Positions 38,116 to 63,091 of a stretch of DNA of 64,000 nt are shown here, piece after piece. The translations under genes were made by a program, and so were the position numbers. The first letter of the stretch is position 1, and each line of letters opens with the position of its first letter. The DNA lies in assembly GCA_965219345.1 (NCBI GenBank), contig OZ244732.1, forward strand, positions 32,001 through 96,000. Reading direction: 5' to 3'. The notes beneath the pieces were generated by a model. The model was not told the origin of the DNA, did not search any database, and saw only the letters and a program-made list of their open reading frames with translations. This stretch comes from Nitrosopumilus sp. (GTDB lineage: Archaea; Thermoproteota; Nitrososphaeria; Nitrososphaerales; Nitrosopumilaceae).

Positions 38116-38736
38116 TTAGAATCTCCACAGTTTTGGTTTGATAAATTTTATTTTTCTCTGAGTGATTAAAATTGTCCAGTTTATTGATGCAAAAAGAACA
38201 ACTACCCCAATTCCAATACCATCAATTAATAAAATTCCAGTAAGACGGTCTTCGAAGATTTCCAGAAAAGGTGTCAAAACTGCATTTCCAAAATATATCA
38301 TAATAACATAAGATACGGTTCTGCCAAACCAAAATCCAATATAGATTCCAATACTTTTGGCACGCATTAACCCATATGTAATAAACAACATATTGCTTGG
38401 AAGTGGGGTAGCACCAAACAGAAAAGATGCTATGACATAACCATACTTTTTATGATTCAGATAATCTCCAATCATGTCAAGATTAGATTTTTGCTCTTCT
38501 GCAACAAATTTTCTAAAATATCCGCTAATCTTTTTTAGAAAAAATCGACCTATAGTTGCTCCAGTTGCACCTACCACTGCAAGAATGATGATATTGAGGC
38601 TAGGATCAAGAAGATAAAATGATGTCAAGACTATCCAGCTGGGCGGCATTAAGATTGGTGCAGCGTTTACTCCAATCAGAATTAGAAAAATTCCAAAATA
38701 CGAATATTCCCCAAAAATTTCAAAAATATCCATCAT
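38116..38736 (-). CDS. DedA/VTT-like membrane protein
   Basis: Multiple hydrophobic helices, ATPLPS. Confidence 0.75.
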   Translation of the reverse strand: MMDIFEIFGEYSYFGIFLILIGVNAAPILMPPSWIVLTSFYLLDPSLNIIILAVVGATGATIGRFFLKKISGYFRKFVAEEQKSNLDMIGDYLNHKKYGYVIASFLFGATPLPSNMLFITYGLMRAKSIGIYIGFWFGRTVSYVIMIYFGNAVLTPFLEIFEDRLTGILLIDGIGIGVVVLFASINWTILITQRKIKFIKPKLWRF

Positions 38737-38884
38737 CTTTCTAAGATTATACCACTTTTTTTATTTCTAAATCCTTGGATTTGGAGTCAGTCATAAAAAA
38801 ATTTCATTATGATCTATAAAATTAAAAGAATTACATGCTTTTCAAAACAATGATCATGTATTGTAATAAATTGGATCAATTGTT

Positions 38885-40230
38885 GGTTCTCCCATACGAA
38901 ATCGTCTCTTATCCTACTGCGGGCCATTCTCAGTGTGCTTTGCTGAATCAGGACATTTCTGATTTGTCTTGCATCTTCTTATACTTTCTTTGCGTCAGCT
39001 CATGATTCTGTGTGCGGTATTCTTCCATGTTTGTTAGCATGTACCAATTATCTCAGGCATCTGCCTTGCAGCAGCTGCAGCTGCTGCAGCTGCTATCCTT
39101 GCCTTTTGTTTTCCTCTCCTTTTTGCAATTCTCAAGTAAAATGATTCCATCCTTGGATCAAATCGTATCGTAGTATTTGCAGCCTCCTCTACCTTGCATT
39201 GCGCAACCATGCAGAACCCCGTTTTGTTATTCCGCCTCCTTTTTGTGTTTTCCAGTCCCTGTGCGATGGTGCAAGTCCCGCATGAGACGAGTTTCTCTGC
39301 TGTTGCAAATCCGTTAATGTCAACTATCTCTGAGATTATTGTCAGTGCCGTGACATAACTTATTCCAGGGATTGTCATGACTAACCTTGTTCTTTCATCC
39401 TCGTTGCTAATTGTAGCAATTTTTGTCTCAAATGTGCCAATCTGTTTTTGATTCATATTGATATTTTCAAGATATGCATCCATTGCCATCCTGTCAACTT
39501 CGGTCAGATTGATTTCATGCAGCCATCCGTTCCTTTCTGTGAGAAGGTCTTTATTGTCGGTTGGGTGTAATCGTATTTTGCAAGTATTGCATAAATCATG
39601 TTTTTGTGTTTTGAGACACTTTGTACACGATTCAGTCTTGTTCTTGCCAGACTGCGCAGGTCCCGGTAGTATTTTTCTGGCACAAATGACTCATACACCA
39701 TCATGTCCGATCTTAGCAGGTCCGCCAATACGTCTGAATCAAGCTTGTCGTTTTTGAGTTTTGCCTGTGCTATTATTTGGTCTTTGCAGGGTGTGCAAGA
39801 ACGGTGTCAATGCCGTTATCCTCTAATGTGTCATGCAGTCTAATCCAATAGTTGGCAGTTGATTCACACACTGCCTGTATGTCTTTACCATATGTCTTTT
39901 TGATGTGTTTGATAAAACCCATTATTCCATGTGTGGTGTTCTCAAAGCTTGACTGTTCTAGCTTTTTTCTAGTATCTTTTTTTATTGTTGCAACGCAGTT
40001 TTTCTTATGAACGTCAATTCCCATGCTGATCATGTTATCACCTCCTTTCTGATCAAATTGCCTGATAAAGCGGAATGCTCCCATTTACCATCATCATCTG
40101 TGTGTGGTATTTTGTTTTCCGCTCGCTTTGAGTCAGTCTGTCAAACGCCCTTGTACATGGCAGTAACCCTTCGACTCTCAGGCCCAATAGTAACAATACA
40201 TCACAGGATATAGAAAAGATTTCGTATAAC
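38885..40230 (-). mobile_element. IS110-family element with frameshifted DEDD recombinase (start 40033) and 5' non-coding end
   Basis: GIDVHKK, CESTANYW, TIPGISYVTA, RRGKQKARIA; inverted ATACGAAATC at 38894 and 40218. Confidence 0.88.
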
Positions 40231-40287
40231 GTCTGTCAACTTATCGTATCTTCTTCCAAGTGTTAACATACGTCGCTTTCTGAAAAA

Positions 40288-40362
40288 TGCGGGCAGCTGG
40301 ATTTGACCCCACGTCTTTCCATTCGCAGAAGAACATCTTAAACCAAGCTAGGCCATACCGGC
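40288..40362 (-). pseudogene. Degenerate tRNA-like sequence (possibly Arg-GCG)
   Basis: GCCGGTA-TG-GCCTAGCTTGGTTTAAGA...CT-GCG-AA...GTGGGGTCAAATCCAGC-TGCCCGC-A; cloverleaf with several mismatches. Confidence 0.6.
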
Positions 40363-40497
40363 AAAAATGAAAATTGCCCACATTCTGCGAATAGGCACTG
40401 CCATGCCCAATGAGAGGCGTTTGTCCTTACCGTGATTTATAATTACACGGGACGCAGGACAAAATGTGTCGGGACACGCTTGTTTTGTAAAAGTAAA

Positions 40498-40890
40498 TTA
40501 TAAAAAGTTATTACTCGAAATTTTTACTGATACTTGCATTTTGGATGATTGTTTTCCACTTGTTATCACCCCTGTCCTCAATTCCCGCCCTATCTGCCGG
40601 AGTATCGCCATCCAATCCGCGTGAGGTCCAATATAATTATGATATAACTTGATTCCCGTAATGGCTGGTGAATCATCTTTTTTTAATCCTCCAAAGATCT
40701 TCTCACGATCCCCGAACTCTCCGTTTAATCTTTCTTGGATATTGTTGTTTGCCACTTGATTTCTAAAATGAACTTCCTTGACATGTTTGCTTGGCTTGTG
40801 CAGAAAATTCTTTGGAGCATATTTTTTTTTTTTTTGAATGCATCGTTGTAAGCTGGCAATCCATCTGTGACAATAACTCCGGGAATACAT
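40498..40890 (-). pseudogene. C-terminal fragment of an IS6-like DDE transposase
   Basis: NNNIQERLNGEFGDREK..GLKK.DSP...YHNYIGPH; frameshifted. Confidence 0.7.
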
Positions 40891-41116
40891 GTTCCAAACA
40901 TAATGAATATGGCAGAGTCTACAAATGAATCAGTGATATTCCTTGGAGTATCAACTATGGGGCTGCCGGTAGGGGTGTATGTTTATCTCCGGCATTTAGC
41001 CTACAGGATACAAAAAAACAATCCTCCGTAACGATAAGATTCCAGACCAAAGACAGTGTCATGCGTGACGTAACCATACAGGCAAACGCGATTGCGGCTT
41101 TCTCAGTACCGTACAT

Positions 41117-41276
41117 ACACACGCACACACGCACACACGCACACACGCACACACGCACACACGCACACACGCACACACGCACACACGCACACACGCACAC
41201 ACGCACACACGCACACACGCACACACGCACACACGCACACACGCACACACGCACACACGCACACACGCACACACGC
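41117..41276. repeat. Perfect microsatellite (ACACACGC)x20
   Basis: Counted directly; lies 7 bp beyond the giant gene stop codon. Confidence 0.97.
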
Positions 41277-41283
41277 ACGCGCA

Positions 41284-44200
41284 CTATCCGACTATTGATT
41301 CCGCCCAGCCGCGCTCCATCAATGGCTGTACCGAGCGGTCAAGGAGGCAGGCAAGATCATCTCTCAGGTTCTTGACCATCGTAAAGCCCGGCTTGCATTC
41401 CATGTCGCCTTCAGATGCGCTGCGACTACTACTGGACTGGGACTGGGACTTTTTTGACGTATCGGATGCGTCGTCATCGTCATCATCATATGTCTTCTCG
41501 CCAACGCACTGTTTTATGCTGATGCTTTCGTTTCTAATGTTGCTGTCCCGTCCCGCTATGTCCGCCAGCAGTATGCCAAGGTATGTCTCGGAAGGCCCCA
41601 TGTGGGATGTGAATACCTTGCTGCCGGGTATTCTTTCATCGGATAGGCTGGCCTCGGCCAGGCCGCCAATGGAGGTTCTGACGGATACCGACAGCGTAGA
41701 CGAGTCATCACCGGTTATTATTCTGACTAGGCCCGTCTCACAGTTCCATGAAACGCCGTAAAGCTCAATGTCGGACAGGGGCTCTCCGCTAGGACTGACG
41801 CCAGTACGGCCGCTGCTACCGCCACCACCGCCACCACCGCCGCCGCCACCGCCGCCGCTTCTGCCGCTCTTTTCGGGCTTTCTTTCCGGTTCAGGTCTTG
41901 GATCCTCCGTATCATCCACAACGGGCGGTGCAATGTTGTTTGTAACCAGATCTGCCGCAAAGCTGGCAAGCGAGTTTGGCTGTGGGAATAGCGTAAATGG
42001 TTCGGGCAGCGCGTATTGGTATATGGCAGTGTTGTTACTGCCTACGACAAACATCTGCATTCCGTCAGCAGAGAAGGCTATGCCTAACGGGAAGATGTCT
42101 TGTGGAACTACTGAAAAAGAGCCGGCAAAGGTGGCAGTGGATACGGTAAAGGGGGCGGTTAGCGCGTACTCGTATACGGCATTATCATTGGAATCTACGA
42201 CAAACATCCTTGTTCCGTTGGCAGAGAAGGCCAGGCCTGCCGGGGATGATACCTGCGATGCCACTGAGAAGGAGCTGTCAAAGGTGACAGCTGCAGACAG
42301 GTCAAACGGCACGGTTAGCGCGTACTCGTATACGGCATTATCATTGGAATCTACGACAAACATCCTTGTTCCGTTGGCAGAGAAGGCCAGGCCTGCCGGG
42401 GATGATACCTGCGATGCCACTGAGAAGGAGCTGTCAAAGGTGACAGCTGCAGACAGGTCAAACGGCACGGTTAGCGCGTACTCGTATACGTTTTGATTAC
42501 TATCACCCAGAACAAACATCCTGGTACCGTTGGCAGAGAAGGCCAGGTCTACTGGAATCGTGTCCCGTGGCACTGAGGAAGAGTTGGTAAAGGTGGCGGA
42601 AGATACGTCAAAGGGGGGGGTTAGCGCGTACTCGTATACGTTTTGATCATCACCATCCAGAACAAACATCTTGGTACCGTTAGCAGAGAAGGCCAGGCCT
42701 GATAGGAGTGTGTCTTGTAAGGACACGGAGAAGGAGCCAACAAGGAAGGCAGAAGCGGCAGGAATGTCATCTATGCTGCCCGTGGTTTTGGCGTATGCCA
42801 GATGGATGACATCGTCATGATCAAGCGTATCGTTAAGGGTAAGGGTGACCGTGTCTGCGGCGGCCGTGATTGCAGTTACGGTTGGGTCTGCGGATATGGT
42901 GCCGGATAGCGCAAAGTCTCCGGGTGCCGCACCGTTTATTGTGACGTCTTCGGACAGTACGACGTCAATTGTCGATGTGCTGGTAGTTGCAATGGAGGAC
43001 ACGATTGGCGGCGCGTCATCGGTTGTGCCGGTAAAGGTCTGGCTCGCTGCCGGGTTTGATGCGGTGTCTATCACGGTGCCAAGTGAATCGGTGTAGGTTA
43101 TATCCGGAGTATCGGATGTGTCGGTGATGCCGGAGACGGCAAGGGTTATGGCGTTACCCGAGCCTGCGGGATTGGTGTTTGCTGTCACCGTTCCGGTGGA
43201 AAGGGTGAATCCTTCGCCGTTTGTGGTTGTGACGTCTATGTTCTCGCTGTACGTCAGGGTTATGCTGGTAGCCGAGGTCACGGCAGCTGCGGTGATTGTT
43301 GGCGGAATAGTATCTGGCAGCGCCGTGGTGCCGGCAAAGGTCTGGCTCGCTGCCGGGTTTGATGCGGTGTCAACCACGGTGCCAAGCGAATCGTCATAGG
43401 TTATAGATGGAGCATCGGATGCCGTGATGCCGGAGACGGTAAGCGTTATGGTGTTGCCCGAACTTGCGGGATCGGTGTTTGCCGTCACCGTTCCTCCGGT
43501 GGTGGAAAGGGTGAATCCTTGGCCGTCTGTGGTTGTGACGTCTATGTTCTCGCTGTACGTCAGGGTTATGCTGGTAGCCGAGGTCACGGCAGCTGCGGTG
43601 ATTTCCGGTGGAATAGTATCTGGCAGCGCCGTGGTGCCGGCAAAGGTCTGGTCTTCTGCCTGGTTTGATGCGGTGTCAACCACGGTGCCAAGCGAATCGT
43701 CATAGGTTATAGATGGAGCATCGGATGCCGTGATGCCGGAGACGGTAAGCGTTATGGTGTCGTCCGAACCGGCGGGATCGGTGTTTGCCGTCACTTCCCC
43801 GTCAGAGAGAGCAAATCCTGCGCCGTTTGTGGTTGTGACGTCTATGTTCTCGCTGTACGTCAGGACTATGCTGATAGCCGAGGTCACGGCAGCTGCGGTG
43901 ATTTCCGGTGGAATAGTATCTGGCGGCGCCGTGGTGCCGGTAAAGGTCTGGCTCGCTGCCGGGTTTGATGCGCTGTCTGTCACGGTGCCATCAGACTCGG
44001 TGTAAATCACGTTTGGAGCATCGGATGCTGTGATGCCGGAGACGGTAAGCGTTATGGTGTCGTCCGAACCGGCGGGATCGGTGTTTGCCGTCACTTCCCC
44101 GTCAGAGAGAGCAAATCCTGCGCCGTTTGTGGTTGTGACGTCTATGTTCTCGCTGTACGTCAGGACTATGCTGATAGCCGAGGTCACGGCAGCTGCGGTG

Positions 44201-47200
44201 ATTTCCGGTGGAATAGTATCTGGCAGCGCCGTGGTGCCGGCAAAGGTCTGGCTCGCTGCCGGGTTTGATGCGGTGTCAACCACGGTGCCAAGCGAATCGT
44301 CATAGGTTATAGATGGAGCATCGGATGCCGTGATGCCGGAGACGGTAAGCGTTATGGTGTTGCCCGAACTTGCGGGATCGGTGTTTGCCGTCACCGTTCC
44401 TCCGGTGGTGGAAAGGGTGAATCCTTGGCCGTCTGTGGTTGTGACGTCTATGTTCTCGCTGTACGTCAGGGTTATGCTGGTAGCCGAGGTCACGGCAGCT
44501 GCGGTGATTTCCGGTGGAATAGTATCTGGCAGCGAACGTGGTGCCGGCAAAGGTCTGGTCTTCTGCCTGGTTTGATGCGGTGTCAACCACGGTGCCAAGC
44601 GAATCGTCATAGGTTATAGATGGAGCATCGGATGCCGTGATGCCGGAGACGGTAAGCGTTATGGTGTCGTCCGAACCGGCGGGATCGGTGTTTGCCGTCA
44701 CTTCCCCGTCAGAGAGAGCAAATCCTGCGCCGTTTGTGGTTGTGACGTCTATGTTCTCGCTGTACGTCAGGACTATGCTGATAGCCGAGGTCACGGCAGC
44801 TGCGGTGATTTCCGGTGGAATAGTATCTGGCGGCGCCGTGGTGCCGGTAAAGGTCTGGCTCGCTGCCGGGTTTGATGCGCTGTCTGTCACGGTGCCATCA
44901 GACTCGGTGTAAATCACGTTTGGAGCATCGGATGCTGTGATGCCGGAGACGGTAAGCGTTATGGTGTCGTCCGAACCGGCGGGATCGGTGTTTGCCGTCA
45001 CTTCCCCGTCAGAGAGAGCAAATCCTGCGCCGTTTGTGGTTGTGACGTCTATGTTCTCGCTGTACGTCAGGACTATGCTGATAGCCGAGGTCACGGCAGC
45101 TGCGGTGATTTCCGGTGGAATAGTATCTGGCAGCGCCGTGGTGCCGGCAAAGGTCTGGCTCGCTGCCGGGTTTGATGCGGTGTCAACCACGGTGCCAAGC
45201 GAATCGTCATAGGTTATAGATGGAGCATCGGATGCCGTGATGCCGGAGACGGTAAGCGTTATGGTGTTGCCCGAACTTGCGGGATCGGTGTTTGCCGTCA
45301 CCGTTCCTCCGGTGGTGGAAAGGGTGAATCCTTGGCCGTCTGTGGTTGTGACGTCTATGTTCTCGCTGTACGTCAGGGTTATGCTGGTAGCCGAGGTCAC
45401 GGCAGCTGCGGTGATTTCCGGTGGAATAGTATCTGGCAGCGCCGTGGTGCCGGCAAAGGTCTGGTCTTCTGCCTGGTTTGATGCGGTGTCAACCACGGTG
45501 CCAAGCGAATCGTCATAGGTTATAGATGGAGCATCGGATGCCGTGAGATGCCGGATGCCGTGATGCCGGAGACGGTAAGCGTTATGGTGTCGTCCGAACC
45601 GGCGGGATCGGTGTTTGCCGTCACTTCCCCGTCAGAGAGAGCAAATCCTGCGCCGTTTGTGGTTGTGACGTCTATGTTCTCGCTGTACGTCAGGACTATG
45701 CTGATAGCCGAGGTCACGGCAGCTGCGGTGATTTCCGGTGGAATAGTATCTGGCGGCGCCGTGGTGCCGGTAAAGGTCTGGCTCGCTGCCGGGTTTGATG
45801 CGCTGTCTGTCACGGTGCCATCAGACTCGGTGTAAATCACGTTTGGAGCATCGGATGCTGTGATGCCGGAGACGGTAAGCGTTATGGTGTCGTCCGAACC
45901 GGCGGGATCGGTGTTTGCCGTCACTTCCCCGTCAGAGAGAGCAAATCCTGCGCCGTTTGTGGTTGTGACGTCTATGTTCTCGCTGTACGTCAGGACTATG
46001 CTGATAGCCGAGGTCACGGCAGCTGCGGTGATTTCCGGTGGAATAGTATCTGGCAGCGCCGTGGTGCCAGCAAAGGTCTGGCTCGCTGCCGGGTTTGATG
46101 CGGTGTCAACCACGGTGCCAAGCGAATCGTCATAGGTTATAGATGGAGTATCGGATGCCGTGATGCCGGAGACGGTAAGCGTTATGGTGTTGCCCGAACT
46201 TGCGGGATCGGTGTTTGCCGTCACCGTTCCTCCGGTGGTGGAAAGGGTGAATCCTTGGCCGTCTGTGGTTGTGACGTCTATGTTCTCGCTGTACGTCAGG
46301 GTTATGCTGGTAGCCGAGGTCACGGCAGCTGCGGTGATTTCCGGTGGGGTGGTATCTATTGGGGGATCAATTTCATCGGATGATGGTGCAATGTTGTTTG
46401 TGACCAACCTTGCATCAAAGCTGGCCAGTGAGTTTGGCTGCGTGGATAACGTAAATGGTTTGGGCAGTGTGTACTCGTTTACGTCACCATCAGCACCACC
46501 TACAACGAACATCTTTATTCCGTCACCAGAGAAGGCCAGGCCTGATGGGAATGTGTCTTGTGACACAGAGAAAGAGCCGGCATAGGTGACATTGGATACG
46601 TCAAAGGGGGCGGTTAGCGCGTACTCGTATACGGCATCGTTATAATTGCCTGTGACAAACATCCTTGTTCCGTCATTAGAGAAGGCCAAACCCTGTGGGA
46701 ATGTGTCTTGTGAGGATACTGGGAAGGAGTTGGTAAAGGAGACATTGGATATGTCAAAGGAGATGGCTAGTGTGTACTCGTATACGGCATCACTCTTAAG
46801 ATCTAGAACAAACATCCTTGTTCCGTCATCAGAGAAGGCCAGGCCTGATGGGAATGTGACTTGTGAGGATACTGAGATGAAGCGCCTTATGTCGGCAGTA
46901 GACAAGTCAAATGGGGTGGTTAGCGCGTACTCGTATACGGCATCGTCACCATCACCTACAGCGAACATCTTTGTTCCGTCATCAGAGAAGGCCAGGCCTG
47001 ATGGGAGCATGTCGTCAAAATACAGTAAGAAAGAGTTGGCAAAGGAGGAAGTCGATACGTCAAAGGGAGCGGATAATTCGTACTCGTATGCTGTAGCAGT
47101 AATACTGTCGGTGACAAACATCCTTGTTCCGTCATTGGAGAAGGCCAGGTCTGATGGATACGTTCCTTGTGAAGCCACCGAGAAAGAGTTGGTAAAGGAT

Positions 47201-50200: not shown

Positions 50201-53200
50201 GTACCAATGAAGGACACGGTTGGGGGCGCGTCATCGACTGTGCGGTCAAAGGTCTGGTCTTCTGCCTGGTTTGATTCCGCGTCTGTCACGGTGCCAAGCG
50301 AATCGTCATAGGTTATAGATGGAGTATCGGATGTGTCGGTGATGCCGGAGACCGTAAGGGTTATGGTGTCGTCTGAACCTGCGGGATCGGTGTTTGCCGT
50401 CACCGTTCCTCCGGTGGAAAGGGCGAATCCTTGGCCGTTTGTGGCGCTGACGTCTATGTTCTCGCTGTACGTCAGGACTATCTCGGTAAGGGAGATCACG
50501 GCAGCTGCGATGATTGTTGGCGGAATGGTGTCCGGCGGCGCCGTGGTGCCGGTAAAGGTCTGGTCTTCTGCCGGGTTTGATGCGCTGTCTTCCACGTTGC
50601 CATCAGACTCGGTGTAAATCACGTTTGGAGCATCGGATGCTGTGATGCCGGAGACGGTAAGCGTTATGGTGTCGTCCGAACCGGCGGGATCGGTGTTTGC
50701 CGTCACTTCCCCGTCAGAGAGAGCAAATCCTGCGCCGTTTGTGGTGCTGACGTCTATGTTCTCGCTGTACGTCAGGACTATGCTGATAGCCGAGGTCACG
50801 GCAGCTGCGGTGATTTCCGGTGGAACGGTGTCCGGCAGCGGGGTGGTGCCGGTAAAGGTCTGGTCTTCTGCAGGGTTTGACGCGCTGTCTGTCACGGAGC
50901 CATCAGACTCGGTGTAAATCACGTTTGGAGCATCGGATGCTGCGGTAATGCCGGAGACGGTAAGGGTTATGGTGTTGCCCGAACCTGCGGGATCGGTGTT
51001 TGCCGTCACCGTTCCGGTGGAAAGGGTGAATCCTTCGCCGTTTGTGGTTATGACGTCTATGTTCTCGCTGTACGTCAGGACTATCTCGGTAAGGGAGATC
51101 ACGGCAGCTGCGATGATTGTTGGCGGGGTGGTATCATCTATTGGGGGATCAATGTCATCTGGTGGCGGTGTCGATGCAATGTTGTTTTTGACCGACATTG
51201 CCGCAAAGCTGGCAAGGGAGTTTGGCTGCGGAAGCAAAGTAAATGGCTTTGACAGCGTGTACTCGTTTACGTCACTGTCATCATTGCCTACGACAAACAT
51301 CTTTTTTCCGTCAGCAGAGAAGGCCAAACCTCGCGGTTTTGTATCTTGTGAGGTCACTGGGAAGGAGCTGGTAAAGGAGGAAGTGGATACGTCAAAGGGG
51401 GCGGATAGTGCGTACTCGTTTACGTCCTTGCCAGAGAGACCTATGACAAACATCTTTTTTCCGTCGTTGGAAAAGTCCAGACCCCATGGACGTGTATCTT
51501 GTGAGTTTACCGGGAAGGAGCTGTCAAAGGTGGCAGTGGATACGTCAAAGGGGGCGGTTAGCGTGTACCCGTATACGGCAATGTCATTATTACCTGTGAC
51601 GAACATCCTTGTTCCGTCAGCAGAGAAGGCCAAACCTCGCGGTTTTATATCTTGTGAGGTCACTGGGAAGGAGCTGTCAAAGGTGGCAGTGGATACGTCA
51701 AAGGGGGTGGATAGCGTGTACTCGTATACGGCACCGCCAAGATCACCTACGACAAACATCTTGGTTCCGTCGTTGGAGAAAGCTAGGCCTTGTGGACGTG
51801 TATCTTGTGAGGCCACTGGGAAAAAGTTGGCAAAGGTGGCAGTGGATACGTCAAATGGGGCGGTTAGCGTGTACTCGTGTATCATATTTTGATCCTTACC
51901 TACGACAAACATCTTTGTTCCGTTAGCAGAGAAGGCCAGGCCTAATGGAGACTGGTCCCTTAACACCACTGAGAAAGAGTCGACAAAGGACGGAGGAGCA
52001 GAAATGTTATCTATGCTGCCCGTGGTTCTGTTGTATGCCAGGTTGATGACATCATTGCTATCAAGCGTATCATTGAGGGTAAGGGTGACCGTGTCTGCAA
52101 CTGCCGTGATTCCAATCACGGCCGGGTCTGTGGATATGGTGCCGGACAGCGCAAAGTCTCCTGGTGCCGCATCGTTTATTGTGACGTCTTCGGACAGTAC
52201 GATATCAATTGCCAGTGTGCTGGCAGTACCGATGGAGGACACGATCAGCATTGTACTGGCAGTTGTACCGGCAAAGGTCTGGTTTGCTGCAGGGTTTGAC
52301 GCGCGGTCTGTCACGGTACCATCAGACTCGGTGTAAATCACGTTTGGAGCATCGGATATGGTGATGTTGGAGACGGTAAGCGTTATGGTGTTGTCTGAAC
52401 CTGCGGGATCGGTGTTTGCCGTCACTTGCCCGACGGAGAGGGTGAATCCTTGGCCGTTTGTGGTTGTGACGTCTATGTTCTCGCTGTACGTCAGGAGTAT
52501 CTCGGTAAGGAAGGTCACGGCAGCTGCGGTGATTGTTGGCGGGGTGGTGTCTGGTGGAATGTTGTTTATGACCGAATCTGCCGCAAAGCTTGCAAGCGAG
52601 TTTGGCTGTGGGAATAGCGTAAATGGCTTTGATAGCGTGTACTCGTTTATGTCATCACCATCATTGCCTACGACAAACATCCTAGTTCCGTCGCCAGAGA
52701 AGGCCAGGCCTTGCGGATTTTCGTCTTCTGATGCCACTGAGAAAGAGCTGACAGGGGCGGCAGTGGATACGTCAAAGGGGGAGGCCAGCGCGTACTCGTT
52801 TACGTCATCGCCAATAAGACCTACGACAAACATCCTAGTTCCGTCGCCAGAGAAGGCCAGGCCTAATGGGAATGCGTCTTGTGAGGCCACTGAGAAAGAG
52901 CTGTCAAAGGTGGCAGTAGATATGTCAAAGGGGACAATCAGTACGTACTCGTTTACTTTACCGCTACCAGTACCTACAACAAACATCTTTTTTCCGTCAT
53001 CAGAGAAGGCCAGGCCTGATGGGAATGCGTCTTGTGAGGCCACTGAGATGGAGTTGGCAAGGGTGGCATTGGATATGTCAAATGGGGTGGATAGCGCGTA
53101 CTCGTTTACCTTACTGTTAGAATCACCTACGACAAACATCCTAGTTCCGTCACCAGAGAAGGCCAGGCCTGATGGGAACCTGTCTTGTGAGGCCACTGAG

Positions 53201-56200
53201 ATGGAGTTGGCAAGGGTGGCATCGGATATGTCAAATGGGGCGGTTAGCGTGTACTCGTTTACGGCATTTCCACTAAGATCTAGAACAAACATCTTTGTTC
53301 CGTTATTGGAGAAGGCCAGGCCTGATGGATACGTTCCTTGTGAAGCCACTGAGAGGGAGTTGGTAAAGGACGTGAGAGCAAGAATGTCATCTATGCTGCC
53401 CGTGTCTTTGGCGTATGTCAGATTGATGTCATCATTACTATCAAGCATATCACTGAGGGCAAGGGTGACCGTGTCGGCAGCGGCCGTGATTCCAGTTACG
53501 ACCAAGTTTGTGGATATGGTGCCGGACAGCGCAAAGTCTTCGGGTGCCGCACCGTTTATTTCGACGTCTTCGGACAGCACGACGTCAATTGTTGATGCAC
53601 TGGAAGTTTCGATAGAAGATACGGTTGGCGGCGCGTCATCTACTGTACGGTCAAAGGTCTGGTCCTCTGCCTGGTTTGATGCGCCGTCTGCCACGGTGCC
53701 ATCAGATTCGATATAAGTCACATCCGGAGTATCGGATGTGTTGGTAATGCCGGAGACCGTAAGGGTTATGGTGTCGTCCGAACCTTCGGGATCGGTGTTT
53801 GCCGTCACCGCTCCCCCGTCAGAGAGGTCAAATCCTGCGCCGTCCGTGGCGCTGACGTCAACGTTCTCGCTGTACGTCAGGACTATGCTGGTAGTCGAGG
53901 TCACGGCAGCTGCGGTAATTGTTGGGGCAACGGTATCTGGTGGAATGTTGTTTTTGACCGGATCTGCCGCAAAGCTGGCAAGCGAGTTTGGCTGTGGTAA
54001 CAAGTTAAATGGTTTGGGCAGCACGTACTCGTTTATGTCATCGTTAAAATCACCCAAGACAAACATCCTTGTTCCGTTGCCAGAGAAGGCCAAGCCTGAT
54101 GGGGATCTGTCTTGTGAGGCCACTGGGAAAGAGTTGGCAAGGGTGACATTGGATACGTCAAATGGGGCGGCCAGCGTGTACTCGTTTACGGCATCGTTAA
54201 AATTACCTACAACGAACATCCTTGTTCCGTCGCCAGAGAAGGCCAGGTCTAGTGGGAGTGTGTCTTCTGATGCCACTGAGAAAGAGCCGACAAAGGAGGA
54301 AGTCGATACGTCAAAGGGGGCGGTTAGCGCGTACTCGTTTACGGCATCGCCAAGATCACCTACAACAAACATCTTTGTTCCGTTGTTGGAGAAGGCCAGG
54401 CCTGATGGGAATACGTCTTGTGAATCCACTGAGAAAGAGTCCACAAAGATGACATTGGATATGTCAAATGGGGCGGCCAGTATGTACTCGTTTACGTCAT
54501 TGCCTTCATCGCCTAGGACAAACATCCTAGTTCCGTCGCCAGAGAAGGCCAGACCTTGTGGGAGTGTGTCTTGTGAACCTACTGAGAAAGTGTTGACAAG
54601 GGTGACATTGGATACGTCAAATGGGGTGGATAGCGCGTACTCGTTTACGGCATCTCTATCAAGATCTAGAACAAACATCTTTTTTCCGTCAGCGGAGAAG
54701 GCCAGGCCTGATAGATCCGTTCCTTGTGGAGCCACTGAGAAGGAGCTGGCAAAGAATGAAAGAAGAATGTCATCTATGCTGCCCGTGGTTTTGGCGTATG
54801 CCAGATTGATGTCATCATTATTATCAAGTGTATCACTGAGGGCAAGGGTGACCGTGTCGGCAAGGATGGGGGTGATTCCAGTCACGGTCGGGTTTGTGGA
54901 TATGGTGCCGGACAGCGCAAAGTCTCCGGGTGCTACAGAGCTGACTGTAACGTTTTCGGACAGTACGACGTTAATTGTCGATGTGCTGGAAGTTTCGATA
55001 GAAGATACGGTTGGCGGCGCGTCATCTACTGTACGGTCAAAGGTCTGGTCTGCCGCCTGGTTTGATGCACTGTCTTCCACGGTGCCATCAGATTCGATAT
55101 AAGTCACATTCGGAGTATCGGATGTGTTGGTAATGCCGGAGACCGTAAGGGTTATGGTGTCGTCCGAACCTTCGGGATCGGTGTTTGCCGTCACTGCTCC
55201 CCCGTCAGAGAGGCCAAATCCTGCGCCGTCCGTGGTGTTGACGTCAACGTTCTCGCTGTACGTCAGGACTATGCTGGTAGCCGAGGTCACGGCAGCTGCG
55301 GTAATTGCTGGGGCATCGGTATCCGGCGGAATGTTGTTTGCAACCGGGGTTGCCACAAAGCTGGCAAGCGAGTTTGGCTGTGTGGATAACGTAAATGGTT
55401 CGGGCAGTGTGTACTCGTTTATGTCAACGCCATCATCACCTGAAACAAACATCTTTGTTCCGTCGCCAGAGAAGGCCAGGCCTGATGGGAATGCGTCTTG
55501 TGAGGATACTGAGAAGGAGTTGGCAGAGGTGACATTGGATATGTCAAAGGGGGCGGTTAGCGCGTACTCGTTTAATTTACTGTTAAAATTATCTAGAACA
55601 AACATCCTTGTTCCGTCATTGGAGAAGGCCAGACCTCGTGGGAATATGTCTTCTGAAGATACTGGGAAGGAGCCGGCAGAGGTGGCAGTAGACAAGTCAA
55701 AGGGGGCTGTCAGCGCGTACTCGCTTACAGCATAGTCACTAGCATCTACGACAAACATCTTTGTTCCGTTAGCAGAGAAGGCCAGGCCTGACGGGGCTGT
55801 TACTTGCGATGTTACTGAGAAAAAGCCGGCAGAGGTGGCAGCAGACAAGTCAAATGGGGCGGTTAGCGCGTACTCGTATACGTTTTGACTATCATCATCT
55901 AGAACAAACATCTTTTTTCCGTCACCAGAGAAGGCCAGGTCTACTGGAAGCGTGTCCTGTGGCACTGAGAAAGGGGCGGCATAGGTGGCGGAAGATACGT
56001 CAAATGGGGCGGCCAGCGTGTACTCGTATACGGCATCGTCACCATCACTTAGAACAAACATCTTTGTTCCGTCGTTGGAGAAGGCCAGGCCTGATGGAGC
56101 TAGGCCTTCTGAATCCACTGAGAAAGAGTCGACAAAGGATGCAGAAGCAGTAGAGATGTCATCTATGCTGCCCGTGTTTCTGGTGTATGCCAGGTTGATG

Positions 56201-59200
56201 TCATCATCATCATCAAGTGTGCCGCTAAGGGTGAGGATAAGCGTGTTTGTAGGTGTGGCAACTGGATTAATGATATTATCACATTCTGGCGTAGCAAAAC
56301 AAAGGGTGGGGATAAGCGTGTTTGTAGGTGTGGCAACAGCAGCAGCATTGATAATTCCAGTTACGACCGGGTTTGCAAATATGGTGCCAGACAGCACAAA
56401 GTCTCCTGGTGCCGCAGAGCTGACTGTAACGTTTTCGGACAGTATGACGTGAATTGTCGATGTGCCGACAGTACCAACGGAGGACACGGTTGGCGGCGCG
56501 TTATCGACTGTGCGGTCAAAGGTCTGGTCTGCCGCCTGGTTTGATGCACTGTCTTCCACGGTGCCAAGCGAATCGTCATAGGTTATAGATGGAGTATAGG
56601 ATGTGTCGGTAATGCCGGAGACGGTAAGGGTTATGGTGTCGTCTGAACCGGCGGGATCGGTGTTTGCCGTCACCGCTCCCCCGTCAGAGAGGCCAAATCC
56701 TGCGCCGTCCGTGGTGTTGACGTCAACGTTCTCGCTGTACGTCAGGACTATCTCGGTAAGGGAGGTCACGGCAGCCGCGGTGATCTCTGGCGGAACGGTA
56801 TCCGGCAGCGGGGTGGTGCCGGTAAAGGTCTGGCTCGCTGCAGGGTTTGATGCGCCGTCTGTCACGGAGCCATCAGACTCGGTGTAAATCACGTTTGGAG
56901 CATCGGATGCGGTGATGCCGGAGACGGTAAGTGTTATGGTGTTGCCCGAATTGTCGGGATCAGTATTTGCCGACACCGTTCCTCCGACAGATAGGGTGAA
57001 TCCTTCGCCGTTTGTGGTTGTGACGTCTATGTTCTCGCTGTACGTCAGGACTATCTCGGTAAGGGAGGTCACGGCAGCTGCGGTGATTGTTGGCGGGGCG
57101 GTGTCTGATGGAATGTTGTTTGTGACCAACATTGCCGCAAAGCTGGCAAGGGAGTTTGGCTGTTGGAATAGCGTAAATGGTTCAGATAGCGCGTACTGGT
57201 GTACGTTCTTGCTGTTATCACCCAAGACAAATATCCTCGTTCCGTCAGCAGAGAAGGCCAGGCCTGTCGGGGATTGGTCTTGTGAGGATACTGAGAAGGA
57301 GTTGGCAGAGGTGGCAGTGGACACGTCAAAGGGGGCGGTTAGTGCGTACTCGTATACGGCACCGTTATAACCACCCACAACAAACATCTTTGTTCCGTCA
57401 CCAGAGAAGGCCAGGCCTCGCGGGAGTATGTCTTCTGATGCCACGGAGAAAGAGTCGACAAAGGTGACATCCGATGTGCCGGCGACATTCGATACGTCAA
57501 AGGGGGCGGTTAGCGTGTACTCGTATACGGCACCGCTAAGATCACCTATAACGAACATCCTAGTTCCGTCGCCAGAGAAGGCCAGGTCTGCCGGTAATGT
57601 GTCTTGTGAGGATACTGAGAAAGAGTTAGCAGAGGTGGCAGTGGACACGTCAAAGGGGGTGGTTAGTGCGTACTCGTTTATGTTATTGTCGAAACTACCC
57701 ACAACAAACATCTTTGTTCCGTCAGCAGAGAAGGCCAGGCCTCGCGGGACTGTGTCTTGTGATGCCACTGAGAAAGAGTCGACAAAGGTAGCAGTGGACA
57801 CGTCAAAGGCGGCGGATAGTGTGTACTGGTGTACGGCATCGTTATCGCTACTAATACCAGTACTCACTACAAACATCCTTGTTCCGTCATTAGAGAAGGC
57901 CATGCCGGTTGATTCCGAGTCTTGTAGATCTACTGGGAAGGAGCTGAGAAGGGGCGGAAGAGGGATGTCATCTATGCTGCCCGTGTTTCTGGTGTATGCC
58001 AGGCTGATGGCATCATTGCTGTCAAGCGTATCGTCAAGGGCAAGGGCTACCGTGTTGTTTGTAACAGCGGTGATTCCGGTCACGGCCGGGTCTGTGGATA
58101 TGGTGCCGGACAGCGCAAAGTCTTCCGGTGCAGCACCGTTTATTGTGACGTTTTCGGACAGCACGATGTTAATTGTTGATGTGCTGGCAGTTGCAATGGA
58201 GGACACGGTTGGAGGCGCGTCATCGGTTGTGCCGGTAAAGGTCTGGCTTGCTGCCGAGGTTGATGCGGTGTCTGTCACGGTGCCGGATTCCGCAGAGTAG
58301 GTTATATCCGGCCTGTCGGATGTGTTGGTGATGCCGGAGACCGTAAGTGTTATGGTGTCTGCCGCACCGGCGGGATCAGAGTTTCCCGTCACTTCCCCGA
58401 CGGAGAGGGTGAATCCCGTGCCGTCTGTGGTTGTGACGTCTATGTTCTCGCTGTACGTCAGGACTATGCTGATAGCCGAGGTCACGGCAGCTGCGGTGAT
58501 TTCCGGTGGAACGGTATCCGGCAGCGGGGTGGTGCCGGTAAAGGTCTGGTCTTCTGCAGGGTTTGATGCGCCGTCTGTCACGGAGCCATCAGACTCGGTG
58601 TAAATCACGTTTGGAGCATCAGATTCGGTGATGCCGGAGACGGTAAGGGTTATGGTGTTGCCCGAACCGGCGGGATCGGTGTTTGCCGACACTGTTCCGG
58701 TGGAAAGGGTGAATCCTGCGCCGTTTATGGTTGTGACGTCTATGTTCTCGCTGTACGTCAGGACTATCTCGGTAAGGGAGGTCACGGTAGCTGCGGTGAT
58801 TGTTGGCGGGGTGGTGTCTGATGGAATGTTGTTTGTGACTGACATTGCCGCAAAGCTGGCAAGGGAGTTTGGCTGCTGGAATAGCGTAAATGGTTCAGAT
58901 AGCGCGTACTGGTGTACGTTCTCGCCGGAATTACCCAAGACAAATATCCTCGTTCCGTCAGCAGAGAAGGCCAGATCTGCCGGGGCTGTGTCTTGTGATC
59001 TCACTGGGAAAGAGTCGACAAAGGAGGCAGTGGACACGTCAAAGGGGGTGGTTAGTGTGTACTCGTTTATGTCATCGTCGAAACCACCTACGACAAACAT
59101 CTTTGTTCCGTCAGCAGAGAGGGCCAGGCCTCGCGGGAATATGTCTTGTGATGCCACTGGGAAAGAGTCGACAAAGGAGGCAGTGGACACGTCAAAGGGG

Positions 59201-60297
59201 GTGGTTAGTGTGTACTCGTTTATGTCATTGCCGGCATCGCCTACGACAAACATCTTTGTTCCGTCAGTAGAGAAGGCCAGGCCTCGCGGGGCTGTGTCTT
59301 GTGATGCCACTGGGAAAGAGTCGACAAAGGAGGCAGTGGACACGTCAAAGGCGGCGGATAGTGTGTACTCGTTTATGTCATTGCCGGCATCGCCTACGAC
59401 AAACATCTTTGTTCCGTCAGCAGAGAAGGCCAGGCCTCGCGGTATTCCGTCTTGTGATGCCACTGGGAAAGAGTCGACAAAGGAGGCAGTAGATACGTCA
59501 AAGGCGGTAGTTAGCGCGTACTGGTTTACGGCATCGTTATCGCCACTACCAGTACCCACTACAAACATCCTTGTTCCGTCATTAGAGAAGGCCAGGCCGG
59601 TTGGTTCCGAGTCTTGTAGACCTACTGGGAAGGAGCCGTCAAGGGGCGGAAGAGGGATGTCATCTATGCTGCCCGTGGTCTTGGTGTATGCCAGGAGGAT
59701 GGCATCATTGCTGTCAAGCGTATCGTCAAGGGCAAGGGCTACCGTGTTGTTTGTAACAGCGGTGATTCCGGTCACGGCCGGGTCTGTGGATATGGTGCTG
59801 GACAGCACAAAGTCTTCCGGTGCAGCATCGTTTATTGTGACGTTCTCGGACAGTACGATGTCAATTGCCGACATGTTGGAAGTTGCAATGGAGAACACGA
59901 TTGGCGGCGCGTCATCGGTTGTACCGGTAAAGGTCTGGTCTGCTGCCAGGTTGAACGCCGTACCTAACAAAGAGTCAGGTAAAGAGGTGTAGATTATATC
60001 CGGCCTGTCGGATGTTGTGATGCCGGAGACGGTAAGCGTTATGGTGTCTGCCGAACCTCCGGGATCGGTGTTTGCCGACACTTGCCCGACGGAGAGGGCG
60101 AATCCTGCGCCGTCCATGCTGTTGGCGTCTATGTTCTCGCTGTACGTCAGGACTATCTCGGTAGCCGAGGTTACAGAAGCTGCGATGATTGTCGGGTGCT
60201 CCGCCGCATGTGCCGGAACAATGGACAAAGAGGCCAACATCAGCGTGGAAATTAAAATAACAAAGGAAATTCTCTCCATCTCTTTATTTTCACACAC
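41284..60297 (-). CDS. Giant (~6,300 aa) secreted surface protein/adhesin: SwmB-like Ig repeats + ten 5-repeat beta-propeller modules + Gly linker + C-terminal Cys motif; two frameshifts in the repeat array
   Basis: ORFs 45520-60297, 44300-45496 and 41284-44610 are continuous apart from +17 nt (45547-45563) and +1 nt (~44535); signal peptide; PxGLAFSxDGTxMFV repeats; GC clearly above backbone. Confidence 0.85.
43300..46345. repeat. Near-identical ~300-bp tandem units (about 10) arranged as a ~906-bp A-B-C superunit
   Basis: Antisense ORFs and DNA recur at 300/306-bp spacing with near-100% identity. Confidence 0.9.
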
Positions 60298-60342
60298 ACC
60301 CCCCCCCCCCCCGTTATTCTGTTGATGCTCACAAAAAATGGT

Positions 60343-60454
60343 AGTTAATGCTCATATATATAAAATTCCAGCTGACAGGGTTGCCCCAAAGCATGCAACC
60401 TTCACATGACTATGCCAAGTTAATGCTCATATATATAAAATTCCAGCTGACAGG
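60343..60454 (-). promoter_or_regulatory. Duplicated 37-bp TATA-containing element upstream of the giant gene
   Basis: AGTTAATGCTCATATATATAAAATTCCAGCTGACAGG at 60343-60379 and 60418-60454; minus strand contains TTTTATATATAT. Confidence 0.6.
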
Positions 60455-60455
60455 A

Positions 60456-61088
60456 CTGCATGGAAATCAATCTGACCGAAGTTGACAGGATGGCAATGGA
60501 TGCATATCTTGAAAATATCAATATGAATCAAAAACAGACTGGCACATTTGAGACAAAAATTGCTACAATTAGCAACGAGGATGAAAGAACAAGGTTAGTC
60601 ATGACAATCCCTGGAATAAGTTATGTCACGGCACTGACAATAATCTCAGAGATAGTTGACATTAACGGATTTGCAACAGCAGAGAAACTCGTCTCATATG
60701 CGGGACTTGCACCATCGCACAGGGACAGTGGGGAAAACACAAAAAGGAGGCGGAATAACAAAACGGGGTTCTGCATGGTTGCGCAATGCAAGGTAGAGGA
60801 GGCTGCAAATACTACGATACGATTTGATCCAAAGATGGAATCATTTTACTTGAGAATTGCAAAAAGGAGAGGAAAACAAAAGGCAAGGATAGCAACAGCT
60901 GCTGCAAGGCAGATGCCTGAGATAATTGGTACATGCTAACAAACATGGAAGAATACCGCACACAGAATCATGAGCTGACGCAAAGAAAGTATAAGAAGAT
61001 GCAAGACAAATCAGAGATGTCCTGATTCAGCAAAGCACACTGAGAATGGCCCGCAGTAGGATAAGAGACGATTTCGTATGGGAGAACC
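60456..61088 (+). mobile_element. IS110-family 3' half, inverted copy of 38885-39522
   Basis: ORF 60460-60939 nearly identical to 39034-39489; includes YAGLAPS..DSG. Confidence 0.88.
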
Positions 61089-61133
61089 CAATTGTTCAAT
61101 ATCTTTATAAGCAAATTATGCCTATATTTAACC

Positions 61134-61256
61134 ATGTCTGAGATGGTTTGGAAATGTTTTAGATGTAATCTATCATTTAAGGACAAAAATTTGGCCGAAA
61201 TGCATAGAGAAATTTCAAGTCATTCAGTTACAAAAGTCAAGACACTAGTTGCATAA
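61134..61256 (+). CDS. Small C2H2-type zinc-finger protein (40 aa; not in ORF track)
   Basis: MSEMVWKCFRCNLSFKDKNLAEMHREISSHSVTKVKTLVA. Confidence 0.75.
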   Translation: MSEMVWKCFRCNLSFKDKNLAEMHREISSHSVTKVKTLVA

Positions 61257-61300
61257 TTATTAAAAAATTTTTGAACACTTTAGTTTTGATAAAAAGCTAA

Positions 61301-61401
61301 TGCAGAGGGTGGGATTCGAACCCACGAACTCCTAAGAGAAGGGATTTCCTATTTTGAGGATCTTGAGTCCCTCTCGGTTGACCGGGCTTCGATACCTCTG
61401 C
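61301..61401 (-). tRNA. tRNA-Leu(CAA) with 16-nt intron (61346-61361)
   Basis: GCAGAGG/CCTCTGC-A acceptor, AGGGA-CT-CAA-G|A-TCCCT, long variable arm, GGTTCGAATCC. Confidence 0.95.
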
Positions 61402-61522
61402 AATGTCATTGGATAATGACCGATATTTCTCGATTACTAATATGAAAAATTAGAAAAATGATCCATTGTTTTGTAGGTTTTTTAACAAAGCTTATAATTA
61501 TGCGAATTTGATTCAAAAATAC

Positions 61523-61837
61523 ATGTCAGAATTCATACCAATTTCAGAAGCAAAAAAAATGCGAAGTGGAGTTAATGTTAAAGCCGAAGTTAAAAGTAAA
61601 GGAGACCCAAGAACTGTAAATCTCAAAAGTGGTGGAACAATTGATGTCTGCGATGCAGTTATAGCTAATGGTGAAACTGAAGATGACCAAATGAAACTCA
61701 CATTATGGGGTGACGACATCAAAGCAGTAAATATTGGAGATGAAGTTGTCATTACAAATGGATATACCAATGAGTTCAAAGGAGAAGTTTCTTTAACAAA
61801 AGGTAAATTTGGTAAGATGGATGTAAATCCTCAATAA
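61523..61837 (+). CDS. ssb: Single-OB-fold single-stranded DNA-binding protein
   Basis: KLTLWGD, NGYTNEFKGEVSL..GKFG. Confidence 0.88.
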   Translation: MSEFIPISEAKKMRSGVNVKAEVKSKGDPRTVNLKSGGTIDVCDAVIANGETEDDQMKLTLWGDDIKAVNIGDEVVITNGYTNEFKGEVSLTKGKFGKMDVNPQ

Positions 61838-61918
61838 ATCTAAATATTCACAGAATAAATTTTATTTTTCTATATTCTCTAATCATACTAAATCTCTTTA
61901 GAAAATTTATCAAAAAAA

Positions 61919-62956: not shown

Positions 62957-63091
62957 GATTGAATCAAAACAAAAGAGTCGGTTAAATTGTTAATATGATC
63001 AGGATTTGACTTACCAGTTAAGAAAATTAACTAATCATGATCGCTAAAATCATTTTTTAAAAAATATTAGTTAAAAGATTCCATAAAAATT

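Follow-up and report, generated by a model that had tools for sequence, protein, structure and literature searches.

The stretch analysed here, referred to throughout as the window, is the 64,000-nt segment C1:32001-96000 of the 1.91-Mb, two-contig genome of a Nitrosopumilus species. It contains a 22.2-kb block in which a giant surface-protein gene lies between two inverted sequences of the insertion sequence (IS) family IS110, and an identical octamer, CAATTGTT, stands immediately outside each end. The block is a single insertion flanked by an 8-bp target-site duplication (TSD). The IS110 sequences, which are of the IS1111 type, appear to sit within the tips of the terminal inverted repeats (TIRs) of an IS6-like transposon, and we consider it probable that this transposon arrived first, that a TIR-seeking IS1111-type element later struck both tips, and that decay followed. 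The features that define the two ends of the block are as follows.

38877..38884, no strand: left TSD copy, CAATTGTT; a single octamer is present at the empty site in 12/12 relatives whose junctions were printed
38885..38890, plus strand: left TIR of the IS6-like host, outermost 6 bp (GGTTCT); the last two bases, CT, form the core dinucleotide, repeated across the IS110
38891..40234, minus strand: IS1111-type IS110 element, full length, frameshifted, 1344 nt, delimited by alignment to two standalone copies
40235..40287, plus strand: inner left TIR and subterminal region (GTCAACTTATCGTATC...), resembling the TIRs of the elements E1007 and t1035; inner limit undefined
60456..61082, plus strand: second IS1111-type IS110 copy, a 3' fragment (~627 nt), from PF02371 and alignment to other copies
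61083..61088, minus strand: outer 6 bp (AGAACC on the plus strand) of the right host TIR; inner part missing
61089..61096, no strand: right TSD copy, CAATTGTT, directly outside the right end, on the same empty-site basis

The block is one insertion with an 8-bp target-site duplication

The outer ends of the block are alike, both reading GGTTCTCCCATACG, and the inverted repeats that they terminate (38885-39516 and 60463-61088) resolve into three arms of 235, 198 and 174 nt with 97-100% identity. The left and right flanks (37400-38884 and 61089-63000) were searched separately in 40 relatives. Both were matched in all 24 genomes of the same genus. In 16 of these the two matches fall on a single contig, where the left one runs exactly 8 nt into the right one. 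Eight genomes (G001, G002, G006, G013, G018, G020, G023 and G024) lack this arrangement: they have split contigs, are diverged or, in G018, carry the two matches ~3.6 kb apart; the junction of G013, when printed, has a single octamer too. All 12 printed junctions read ...aaattggat-CAATnATn-caatatctttataag..., with one octamer and contiguous flanks. The flank matches likewise overlap by 8 nt in G343, and in the more distant G406 the left gene lies ~230 bp from the tRNA gene described below. Because the flanks are adjacent around one octamer in relatives, all 22.2 kb must be an insertion. The octamer itself varies among the relatives (CAATCATG, CAATTATC, CAATGATG) and the window genome has its own variant on both sides, as expected if the local sequence was duplicated. 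Identical flanking 8-mers occur at 5 of the 8844 GGTTCT...AGAACC pairs that lie no more than 40 kb apart in the whole genome, for which the composition-based chance estimate is ~0.3; the repeat of CAATTGTT exceeds chance. Logan contigs from runs X19-X21, which come from one study and possibly from the assembly's source sample, agree with both assembly junctions: those starting in the left flank reach 30 letters into the element with 0-3 differences, a single letter less than is counted as bridging, and the right junction appears as a loose end. No joints were reported in the Logan contigs of X19-X21 (coverage of X23 was low), a result that is uninformative on rare excised or empty forms.

These data bear out the initial annotation in its proposal of one inserted unit with an 8-bp TSD, and in its description of like ends with the exact octamer directly outside them (38877-38884 and 61089-61096). 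It had named non-adjacent flanks in relatives as the observation that would speak against such a unit, and the flanks are adjacent.

The insertion site lies beside a tRNA gene, which is outside the element by ~205 bp.

61301..61401, minus strand: tRNA gene (context), Rfam 43.9 bits; anticodon loop read as CAA (Leu)

This 101-nt gene is missed by ARAGORN, perhaps owing to an intron or a long variable arm. The corresponding intergenic region of G018 (L166, C1:1458700-1463000) is occupied by ~3.6 kb that encode two IS66-family transposases (PF03050, 6e-41 and 2e-22) and lack GGTTCTG tips. With IS66-family genes in G018 and the block here, the region beside the tRNA gene is a repeated landing place.

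Extent and ends of the IS110 copies

The left IS110 copy aligns over 1362-1366 nt with two standalone copies elsewhere in the genome and the right copy over only ~635 nt. The DEDD domain (PF01548, 9.2e-12) at 39773-40084(-) belongs to the left copy, and Transposase_20 (PF02371) is present in both, at 39034-39489(-) with 2.7e-8 and at 60460-60939(+) with 7.3e-19. Of the two outward-facing IS110 3' ends of ~635 bp originally described, the right fragment and the outward direction of the right ends are therefore retained, but the left copy is a full-length element (38891-40234). None of the three full copies in the genome has an intact reading frame, that of the left copy falling into three pieces, and a frameshift before WLHEI is common to the three when they are set against the 309-aa frame of a relative. 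The right fragment (633 nt including the tip) has four further matches in the genome. Two are long, both at 97% (C1:1485228-1485852 and 484490-485111), and two are short remnants, of 99 nt ending at 1278680 and of 36 nt at 210833.

All six copies end at ...GGGAGAACC, outside which their flanks are mutually unrelated, and in 6/6 the right end faces the tip. A paralogous empty site at C1:1582594, 90% identical to the right flank of the copy at C1:485111, allows the boundary to be placed: the empty site reads ...cataACTTCAC-AT-AACC followed by CTTGATCG, and the occupied site reads ...cataACTTCAC-AG-(IS)-AG-AACC followed by CTTGACCG. By this comparison, a single IS110 insertion duplicates at most the 2-nt core, and no flanking repeats were found at the two standalone copies. 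Related copies in other genera and species keep ...TTTCGTATGGG and then continue into variable hexamers (AGAACG, ATAACC, AGAATC, AGAATA, AGAACC). The hexamers after the right end at five G343 loci are AGAATC, AGTACC, GGAGCC and AGAACC, with more variants elsewhere, and the left ends of related copies begin ACGTTATACGAAATC after AG or, rarely, AT. The element is thus 1326-1344 nt long, with ends of the form AGACGTT-ATACGAAATC ... GATTTCGTAT-GGG, in which a subterminal inverted repeat of 10 bp is extended by 7 nt on the left and by 3 nt on the right. The IS1111 family is described, in PMC11187229, as having 7-nt (or 6-nt) left and 3-nt right extensions around a repeat of usually 11-13 bp. Given the paralogous empty site, the variable hexamers and this extension geometry, we place the IS110 right end at ...CGTATGGG and read the terminal GGTTCT, which the initial annotation had assigned to IS110, as target sequence. 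Relatives provided no usable empty site for the two standalone copies, whose flanks are not conserved in the 40 relatives searched.

The target is the tip of an IS6-like terminal inverted repeat

The identity of the target follows from other mobile elements of the same genome. Four elements of 2842-3244 bp (C1:401802, 1007879, 1448345 and 1729074) have TIRs starting GGTTCTG and exact 8-bp TSDs. Further family members match 24-25 of 25 TIR bases, one of them with a 7-nt flanking repeat and three with none. The family transposase is ~380 aa long; the paralogue at C1:211451-212593 matches PF13610, DDE_Tnp_IS240 (2.3e-14), with a SWIM finger below threshold, and tblastn finds more than 20 copies or fragments of the gene in the genome. 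A GG-tipped, IS6-like DDE family with 8-bp TSDs, which had been suggested as the likely agent of the insertion, is therefore present, on the evidence of these four elements and the PF13610 transposase. Its members carry passenger genes. In E401 (C1:401802-404769) and in C1:1448345-1451300 the passenger encodes a protein of 470-496 aa whose N-terminus, poly-proline followed by a hydrophobic stretch, resembles that of two other giant proteins of the genome (at c484 and p1582). The element at C1:1448345-1451300 also shares 285 nt at 93% with the gene beside the IS110 at C1:485111.

Joining the tip in the window to the sequence past the left end of the IS110 gives GGTTCTGTCAACTTATCGTATC, to be compared with GGTTCTGTAACGTTATCGTTAC in E1007 and GGTTCTGTGAAGTTATCGTGTG in t1035. 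The same operation rebuilds GGTTCTGTCAACTTGATGAGG at C1:1485228 and, at C1:485111 (c484), GGTTCTGTGAAGTTATGTGG / GGTTCTGTGAAGTTAT, which is identical to the t1035 TIR over 16 nt. In other genomes, similar TIRs are rebuilt at 5 of the 6 occupied sites with a recognisable left end, one of which (L084) is nearly of the window's own type, and the sites of both IS110 copies in G124 rebuild similar TIRs as well. The target reads GGTT-CT-GT[C/G]AA[C/G]TT, and the window genome has 18 unoccupied tips of this motif. As judged from these reconstructions, the target of the IS110 is the IS6-like TIR, with insertion between positions 6 and 7 and the right end towards the tip. The transposase relic in the window points at the left tip, and the transposase gene is likewise directed towards one tip in E401, E1007 and the element at C1:210833. 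For the last of these, the 36-bp fragment at C1:210833 was considered as a TIR of the neighbouring IS6-like element and rejected, as that element has its free tip, GGTTCTGTTAACTTAC, at 213036 and unlike flanking 8-mers; an IS110 remnant in the element's other tip is the better reading of the fragment.

Three further observations concern this family and its tips. A 179-bp miniature element at window positions 13801-13979 has inverted ends GGTTCTGTTGCATC..., the tip type of the IS6-like family and in keeping with the GGTTCT start reported for it, and its flanking 8-mers differ. At three loci of the window genome (L131 512-568(+), L028 3834-3890(-) and L132 2448-2503(+)), the start of the IS6-like transposase is closely preceded by C/D-box sRNA-like matches (27-37 bits, cut-offs 38-45). 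At L051 (G218:C7), a related IS110 right end is followed by AGAATCCTAAAAGATCCG, the complement of which resembles the subterminal motif GGATCTTCTAAGGATTC of IS6-like ends, so that another IS110 subfamily may target a second position in these ends.

A candidate guide segment upstream of the recombinase gene

The IS110 element has non-coding regions of 201 nt at the 5' side and 106 nt at the 3' side, and matches to the target are confined to the former: neither target strand is matched over 5 nt or more by the 3' region. Within the 5' region, TTGACAGA is identical to the top strand of the target across the insertion point, and GGTTA-CTGTCA, ~14 nt upstream of it, is identical to the bottom strand except for one extra base. 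The homologous segment was located in 14 of 17 distinct IS-flank pairs from this and other genomes, whose targets include TTGAC, TCTGT, GTATG, CGCGT and others. Of the 5 nt that precede the core dinucleotide, an average of 4.07 agree with the left flank across these 14 pairs, as against 1.2 of 5 across 170 mismatched pairings, a comparison that is supportive rather than a statistical proof since several pairs come from related, non-independent copies. A search of 38700-41400 against Rfam found no bridge-RNA-like family. We infer that insertion of this IS110 would be RNA-guided through the predicted 5' segment. In the IS1111 group, the non-coding region that carries target matches is usually downstream of the recombinase gene, according to PMC11187229. 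The upstream region found here is an exception and does not exclude the element from that group.

The interior of the block

Between the IS110 copies the GC content is 0.50-0.58, compared with 0.30-0.37 in the flanks, and most of the interior is taken up by a single gene on the minus strand.

40288..40362, minus strand: tRNA-like sequence, Rfam RF00005 27.9 bits, below the cut-off of 29; none by ARAGORN
40529..40886, minus strand: relic of an IS6-like DDE transposase, the C-terminal third (aa 252-369 of a 377-aa paralogue), in three pieces at 77%, 70% and 66% by tblastn
40870..41122, no strand: 3' flank module common to other giant genes, 89-90% at C1:1027905, 914239 and 1502060
41117..41278, no strand: perfect (ACACACGC)x20 array, just downstream of the stop of the giant gene
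41284..60279, minus strand: giant surface-protein gene, ~19 kb, in pieces 41284-44610, 44300-45496 and 45520-60297
60280..60455, minus strand: promoter/5' module preceding the giant gene, with counterparts at three further giant-gene loci (97-99% identity)

The GC-rich giant gene of ~19 kb, the pseudo-tRNA (here a sub-threshold tRNA-like stretch) and the IS6-like DDE transposase relic had all been recognised in the initial annotation and are upheld, the relic by tblastn; Pfam gave no match on the relic itself. A real tRNA (62 bits) is found at L131 1876-1956(+), ~110 bp downstream of a related IS6-like transposase gene and in the same relative place as 40288-40362(-), and it may be that a tRNA is a passenger of this IS6-like subfamily.

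The likely start of the giant gene is the ATG at 60279, which opens a hydrophobic, signal-like N-terminus; the protein matches SWM_repeat, SGL/propeller and Ig-like families and has internal repeats. In the promoter module, a poly-G run of 13-14 nt and a (TG)n tract immediately precede the start and have the look of a switch prone to slippage. The final 37 nt of the module occur twice (60343-60379 and 60418-60454), and a 75-bp partial duplication of the module lies between it and the IS110 fragment. The stretch 60280-60379 resembles C1:908741, 1487735 and 201567 at 97-99%, with gene bodies at 90% or less. Window positions 43722-46151 contain 300-nt repeats that are 100% identical and lie 907 and 923 nt apart, neither distance a multiple of three, at the frame breaks of the giant gene; they result from a very recent tandem duplication or else from a fault in the assembly. 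The possibility that the giant gene is a near copy of another locus was rejected: elsewhere it is matched at best over a single 1.7-kb stretch (90%), and no sibling transposon was found.

A proposed history of the block

The history that we regard as probable begins with an IS6-like DDE transposon landing at the intergenic CAATTGTT upstream of the tRNA gene and duplicating these 8 bp. The giant surface-protein gene would, on a slight balance of likelihood, already have been aboard. An IS1111-type element, with its DEDD recombinase and 10-bp subterminal repeats, would then have inserted into each TIR with its right end tipward. The IS110 copies are inverted, on this account, because the two TIRs are inverted, and each lies 6 bp from the TSD. 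A deletion would subsequently have joined the middle of the right IS110 to the promoter module, removing the inner right TIR, while the IS6-like transposase gene lost its first two thirds and the IS110 frames gained frameshifts. The caps may have immobilised their host. Two features fit the proposed deletion. The junction of the IS110 fragment and the promoter falls within 12-14 nt that are similar to what precedes the module at paralogous loci, consistent with short-homology deletion, and the locus at C1:1485228, which comprises a tip, a full IS110, 51 nt of inner TIR, 1.28 kb, the promoter module and a giant gene, would represent the layout of the window's right end beforehand. The inverted IS110 pair is most simply explained as two independent target-specific insertions. 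The initial annotation had foreseen such a pair of insertions if standalone IS110 copies abutted CAATTG-like targets; they do not, but two independent insertions are favoured nonetheless, with the TIR tip as their target.

To find comparable units, we scanned for TTTCGTATGGGAGAACC in one genome per species. This gave 54 loci, of which 33 (34 tips) are from ammonia-oxidising archaea by record titles, and inspection of flanking 8-mers identified two more TSD-flanked pairs, both in one archaeal metagenome-assembled genome. The first, L082 (2620-2832), is a 197-bp unit in which GCATTCAG is followed by GGTTCT-CCCATACGAAATC..., 175 nt of IS110 right end, ...GATTTCGTATGGG-AGAACC and GCATTCAG again. 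The second is formed by two contig ends, L108 (7663-8000) and L130 (2679-2896), which together make a whole IS110 with TTCTCGTT on both sides, its left extension replaced by CCC preceded by GGTTCT. Both would be collapsed double-hit hosts if the transposon came first, and mobilised units if IS110-capped ends can be moved (see below). The truncated-IS110/promoter junction of the window was found in 2 of the 151 genomes of the genus, the window genome and G406, which is the assembly of another species. In the latter, the junction of the duplicated promoter and the truncated IS110 lies at G406:C7:14255-14463 (L137, L142, L164) and is 98% identical over 211 nt, in a genome whose core flanks are 67-79% identical and whose tRNA-adjacent site is empty. 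Contig C7 (14.5 kb) ends inside the IS110 and no other G406 contig has the remainder; it is possible that C7 is mis-binned. A metagenome collection returned 0 stretches with the junction pattern, the first of the two patterns used matching the window genome's form only.

Several points weigh against the history proposed above. The inner right TIR is gone, so only the left end is demonstrable as an IS6-like TIR. No host combining an occupied tip with a free one and a matching TSD was seen, either at the other capped tips here (0 of 4) or at testable loci elsewhere (0 of 6). For those four tips of the window genome there is no partner tip with matching 8-mers, whether within 40 kb allowing 2 mismatches or genome-wide; the suggested check of other IS110 ends for 8-bp TSDs gave no pair for these tips and, in another genome, the IS110-only pairs L082 and L108/L130. 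C1:210833-213036 does combine a capped with a free tip, yet the 8-mers beside them are not alike. The TSD-flanked units L082 and L108/L130 hold only IS110 sequence between GGTTCTCCCATACGAAATC tips, and each needs an extra deletion of all host DNA. For L108/L130, two head-to-head copies recombining at their 10-bp subterminal repeats would yield the observed product, and L082 needs a further, less obvious deletion. The presence of the truncated-IS110/promoter junction on G406 contig C7 is a further difficulty: should that copy occupy a different site, movement of the element would postdate the truncation of the IS110. The giant-gene block is also bounded on both sides by truncated mobile-element sequence and may have entered a resident small element later. 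Finally, both the sequence in which the events occurred and the proposed loss of mobility are drawn by analogy from other families.

Such a late arrival of the cargo makes a variant of the proposed history that departs from it solely in the timing of the cargo, and we think it less likely than not. In such a scenario a ~3-kb IS6-like element would have landed and been capped at both tips, and a 19.5-kb giant-gene block (~40870-60455) would later have replaced the interior by recombination, in which case the giant gene was not delivered by any transposase. It accounts for the mobile-element truncations at both borders of the block, where the transposase is cut at aa 252 and the IS110 mid-element, and it sits well with the size of all other TSD-flanked IS6-like elements here (2.8-3.2 kb). 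The promoter and 3'-flank modules, common to other giant genes at 89-99% with bodies at 90% or less, show that exchange among these loci is frequent. However, swapping the interior without touching the tips or the TSD needs two crossovers at non-homologous borders. The giant gene at C1:1485228 already lies 1.28 kb inside an IS6-like TIR, and the IS6-like elements here carry passengers related to other giant proteins of the genome, both of which speak against the variant.

The initial annotation envisaged instead a one-step hybrid, in which the IS6-like transposase used the inverted GGTTCT plus IS110-right-end sequences as long terminal repeats and made the TSD. We consider this unlikely, and equally doubtful its general form, that IS110 capping leaves ends cuttable by the IS6-like DDE transposase and thereby creates a new class of long-TIR hybrid transposons. 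The idea draws on the three TSD-flanked units with symmetric GGTTCTCCCATACGAAATC tips (the window, L082 and L108/L130), the latter two without host DNA, and on the junction held in common with G406 C7 (98%), whose homologous site is empty. The GGTTCT hexamer is moreover the part common to all IS6-like TIR subfamilies here and, by our own reading, ACG-NN-ATCGT is common to the IS110 end and the E1007 TIR once the two are offset by 2 nt. From position 7 onwards, however, the capped end has no clear in-register likeness to any IS6-like TIR in the genome, and the presumed transposase binding site would be displaced by 1.3 kb. Nor have tip-bearing units been amplified: of the 34 archaeal tips with the exact 17-mer, two share an 8-kb locus in L082 only, and a left-end-type tip occurs just once. 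The window's two IS110 copies are 96.1% identical to each other and no closer than either is to the standalone copies (97.2-97.4%), and the inner left TIR is still present and correctly placed past the left IS110, as a plain IS110 insertion expects. IS110-derived terminal repeats are not needed, since GGTTCT is the outer 6 bp of an IS6-like TIR whose inner part resumes at 40235. If the hybrid model were true, RNA-guided IS110 capping would make hybrids able to move anything between the caps, be it a 19-kb adhesin gene, a whole IS110 or a 197-bp miniature, and the junction common with G406 would be a trace of such movement.

The remaining idea, that there was no host transposon and that two IS110 elements inserted independently beside pre-existing DNA with the octamer arising by chance or target preference, might appeal to the palindromic CAATTG, the AT-rich genome and the target specificity of IS110 elements, but it is refuted by the empty sites (flanks adjacent, one octamer, in relatives), by the other four right-end flanks, which are unrelated to CAATTG, and by the duplication of at most a 2-nt core in single IS110 insertions, and we regard it as extremely improbable.

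Comparison with known systems

TIRs beginning with GG and 8-bp TSDs typify the IS6 family. The host transposon proposed here resembles this family (IS26, IS240 and archaeal relatives) in its GG tips, its 8-bp TSDs and, through the paralogue, its putative DDE_Tnp_IS240 transposase. It differs in that the elements of this genome are 2.8-4.2 kb long with passengers, have a SWIM-like N-terminal finger (sub-cut-off) and have TIRs of ~25-47 bp. The window element itself would be ~20.2 kb without its IS110 caps, unlike a classic directly repeated IS26 pair, and unlike an intact IS6 element its left TIR is split by IS110 and its right TIR reduced to the outer 6 bp. It is not a composite transposon of the usual kind either, because the flanking IS is of the IS110 type with no 8-bp TSD of its own, and a single IS6-like relic lies inside.

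The closest precedent for the caps is found in IS5075 and IS4321, which insert in Tn21-type TIRs as well as in sequences that resemble them (PMC8269217). As with those elements and the 38-bp TIRs of the Tn21 family, a DEDD IS with subterminal repeats occupies a fixed position and orientation in the TIR of a DDE transposon, and the TSD of the host transposon stays outside. The look-alike targets also have a counterpart: ureC in Klebsiella in the one case (PMC8269217), and in the other a TIR-like relic upstream of another giant gene. The differences are the archaeal host, the IS6-like rather than Tn3-family target and an insertion point only 6 bp from the tip. With respect to the guide, the long target-matching non-coding region is upstream of the recombinase gene here, unlike that of the usual IS1111-type element as presented in PMC11187229. 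In the candidate guide the top-strand complement comes first, as reported for IS1111 seekRNAs, and the upstream position is as reported for IS110-type elements. All three full copies in the genome are frameshifted, another difference from the bridge-RNA- or seekRNA-guided elements.

Expanded cargo-carrying IS110 loci have been described in which, as here, IS110 sequences bracket large cargo; these grow by the flexible recombination of IS110 itself, and the abstract of that report does not mention an 8-bp TSD (bioRxiv 10.64898/2026.08.14.744561). Set against that abstract, the copies in the window differ in being inverted and tail-out, with a TSD that points to a DDE enzyme. In the literature outside supplements and subscription journals we found no description of a TIR-targeting archaeal IS110 or of IS6-like transposons with such cargo. 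What is new here is the archaeal host, the use of IS6-like TIR tips as a target 6 bp from the end, and a predicted upstream guide in an element with IS1111-type ends.

Taken apart in this way, the apparent GG-ended IS110 terminus is the junction of an IS6-like transposon and an IS110, and what looked like a hybrid becomes the interplay of two known kinds of element in ammonia-oxidising archaea, in what is likely a case of one mobile element disabling another. The locus offers a natural, sequence-defined target for an archaeal bridge/seek-RNA-type recombinase with a predicted upstream guide. It also places giant surface-protein genes, the most variable loci of such genomes, inside or beside IS6-like transposons, and shows one 22-kb unit that entered a site empty in congeners. 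Its parts fall into known kinds: a passenger-carrying IS6-like transposon, unusually large, and a TIR-seeking IS1111-type element.

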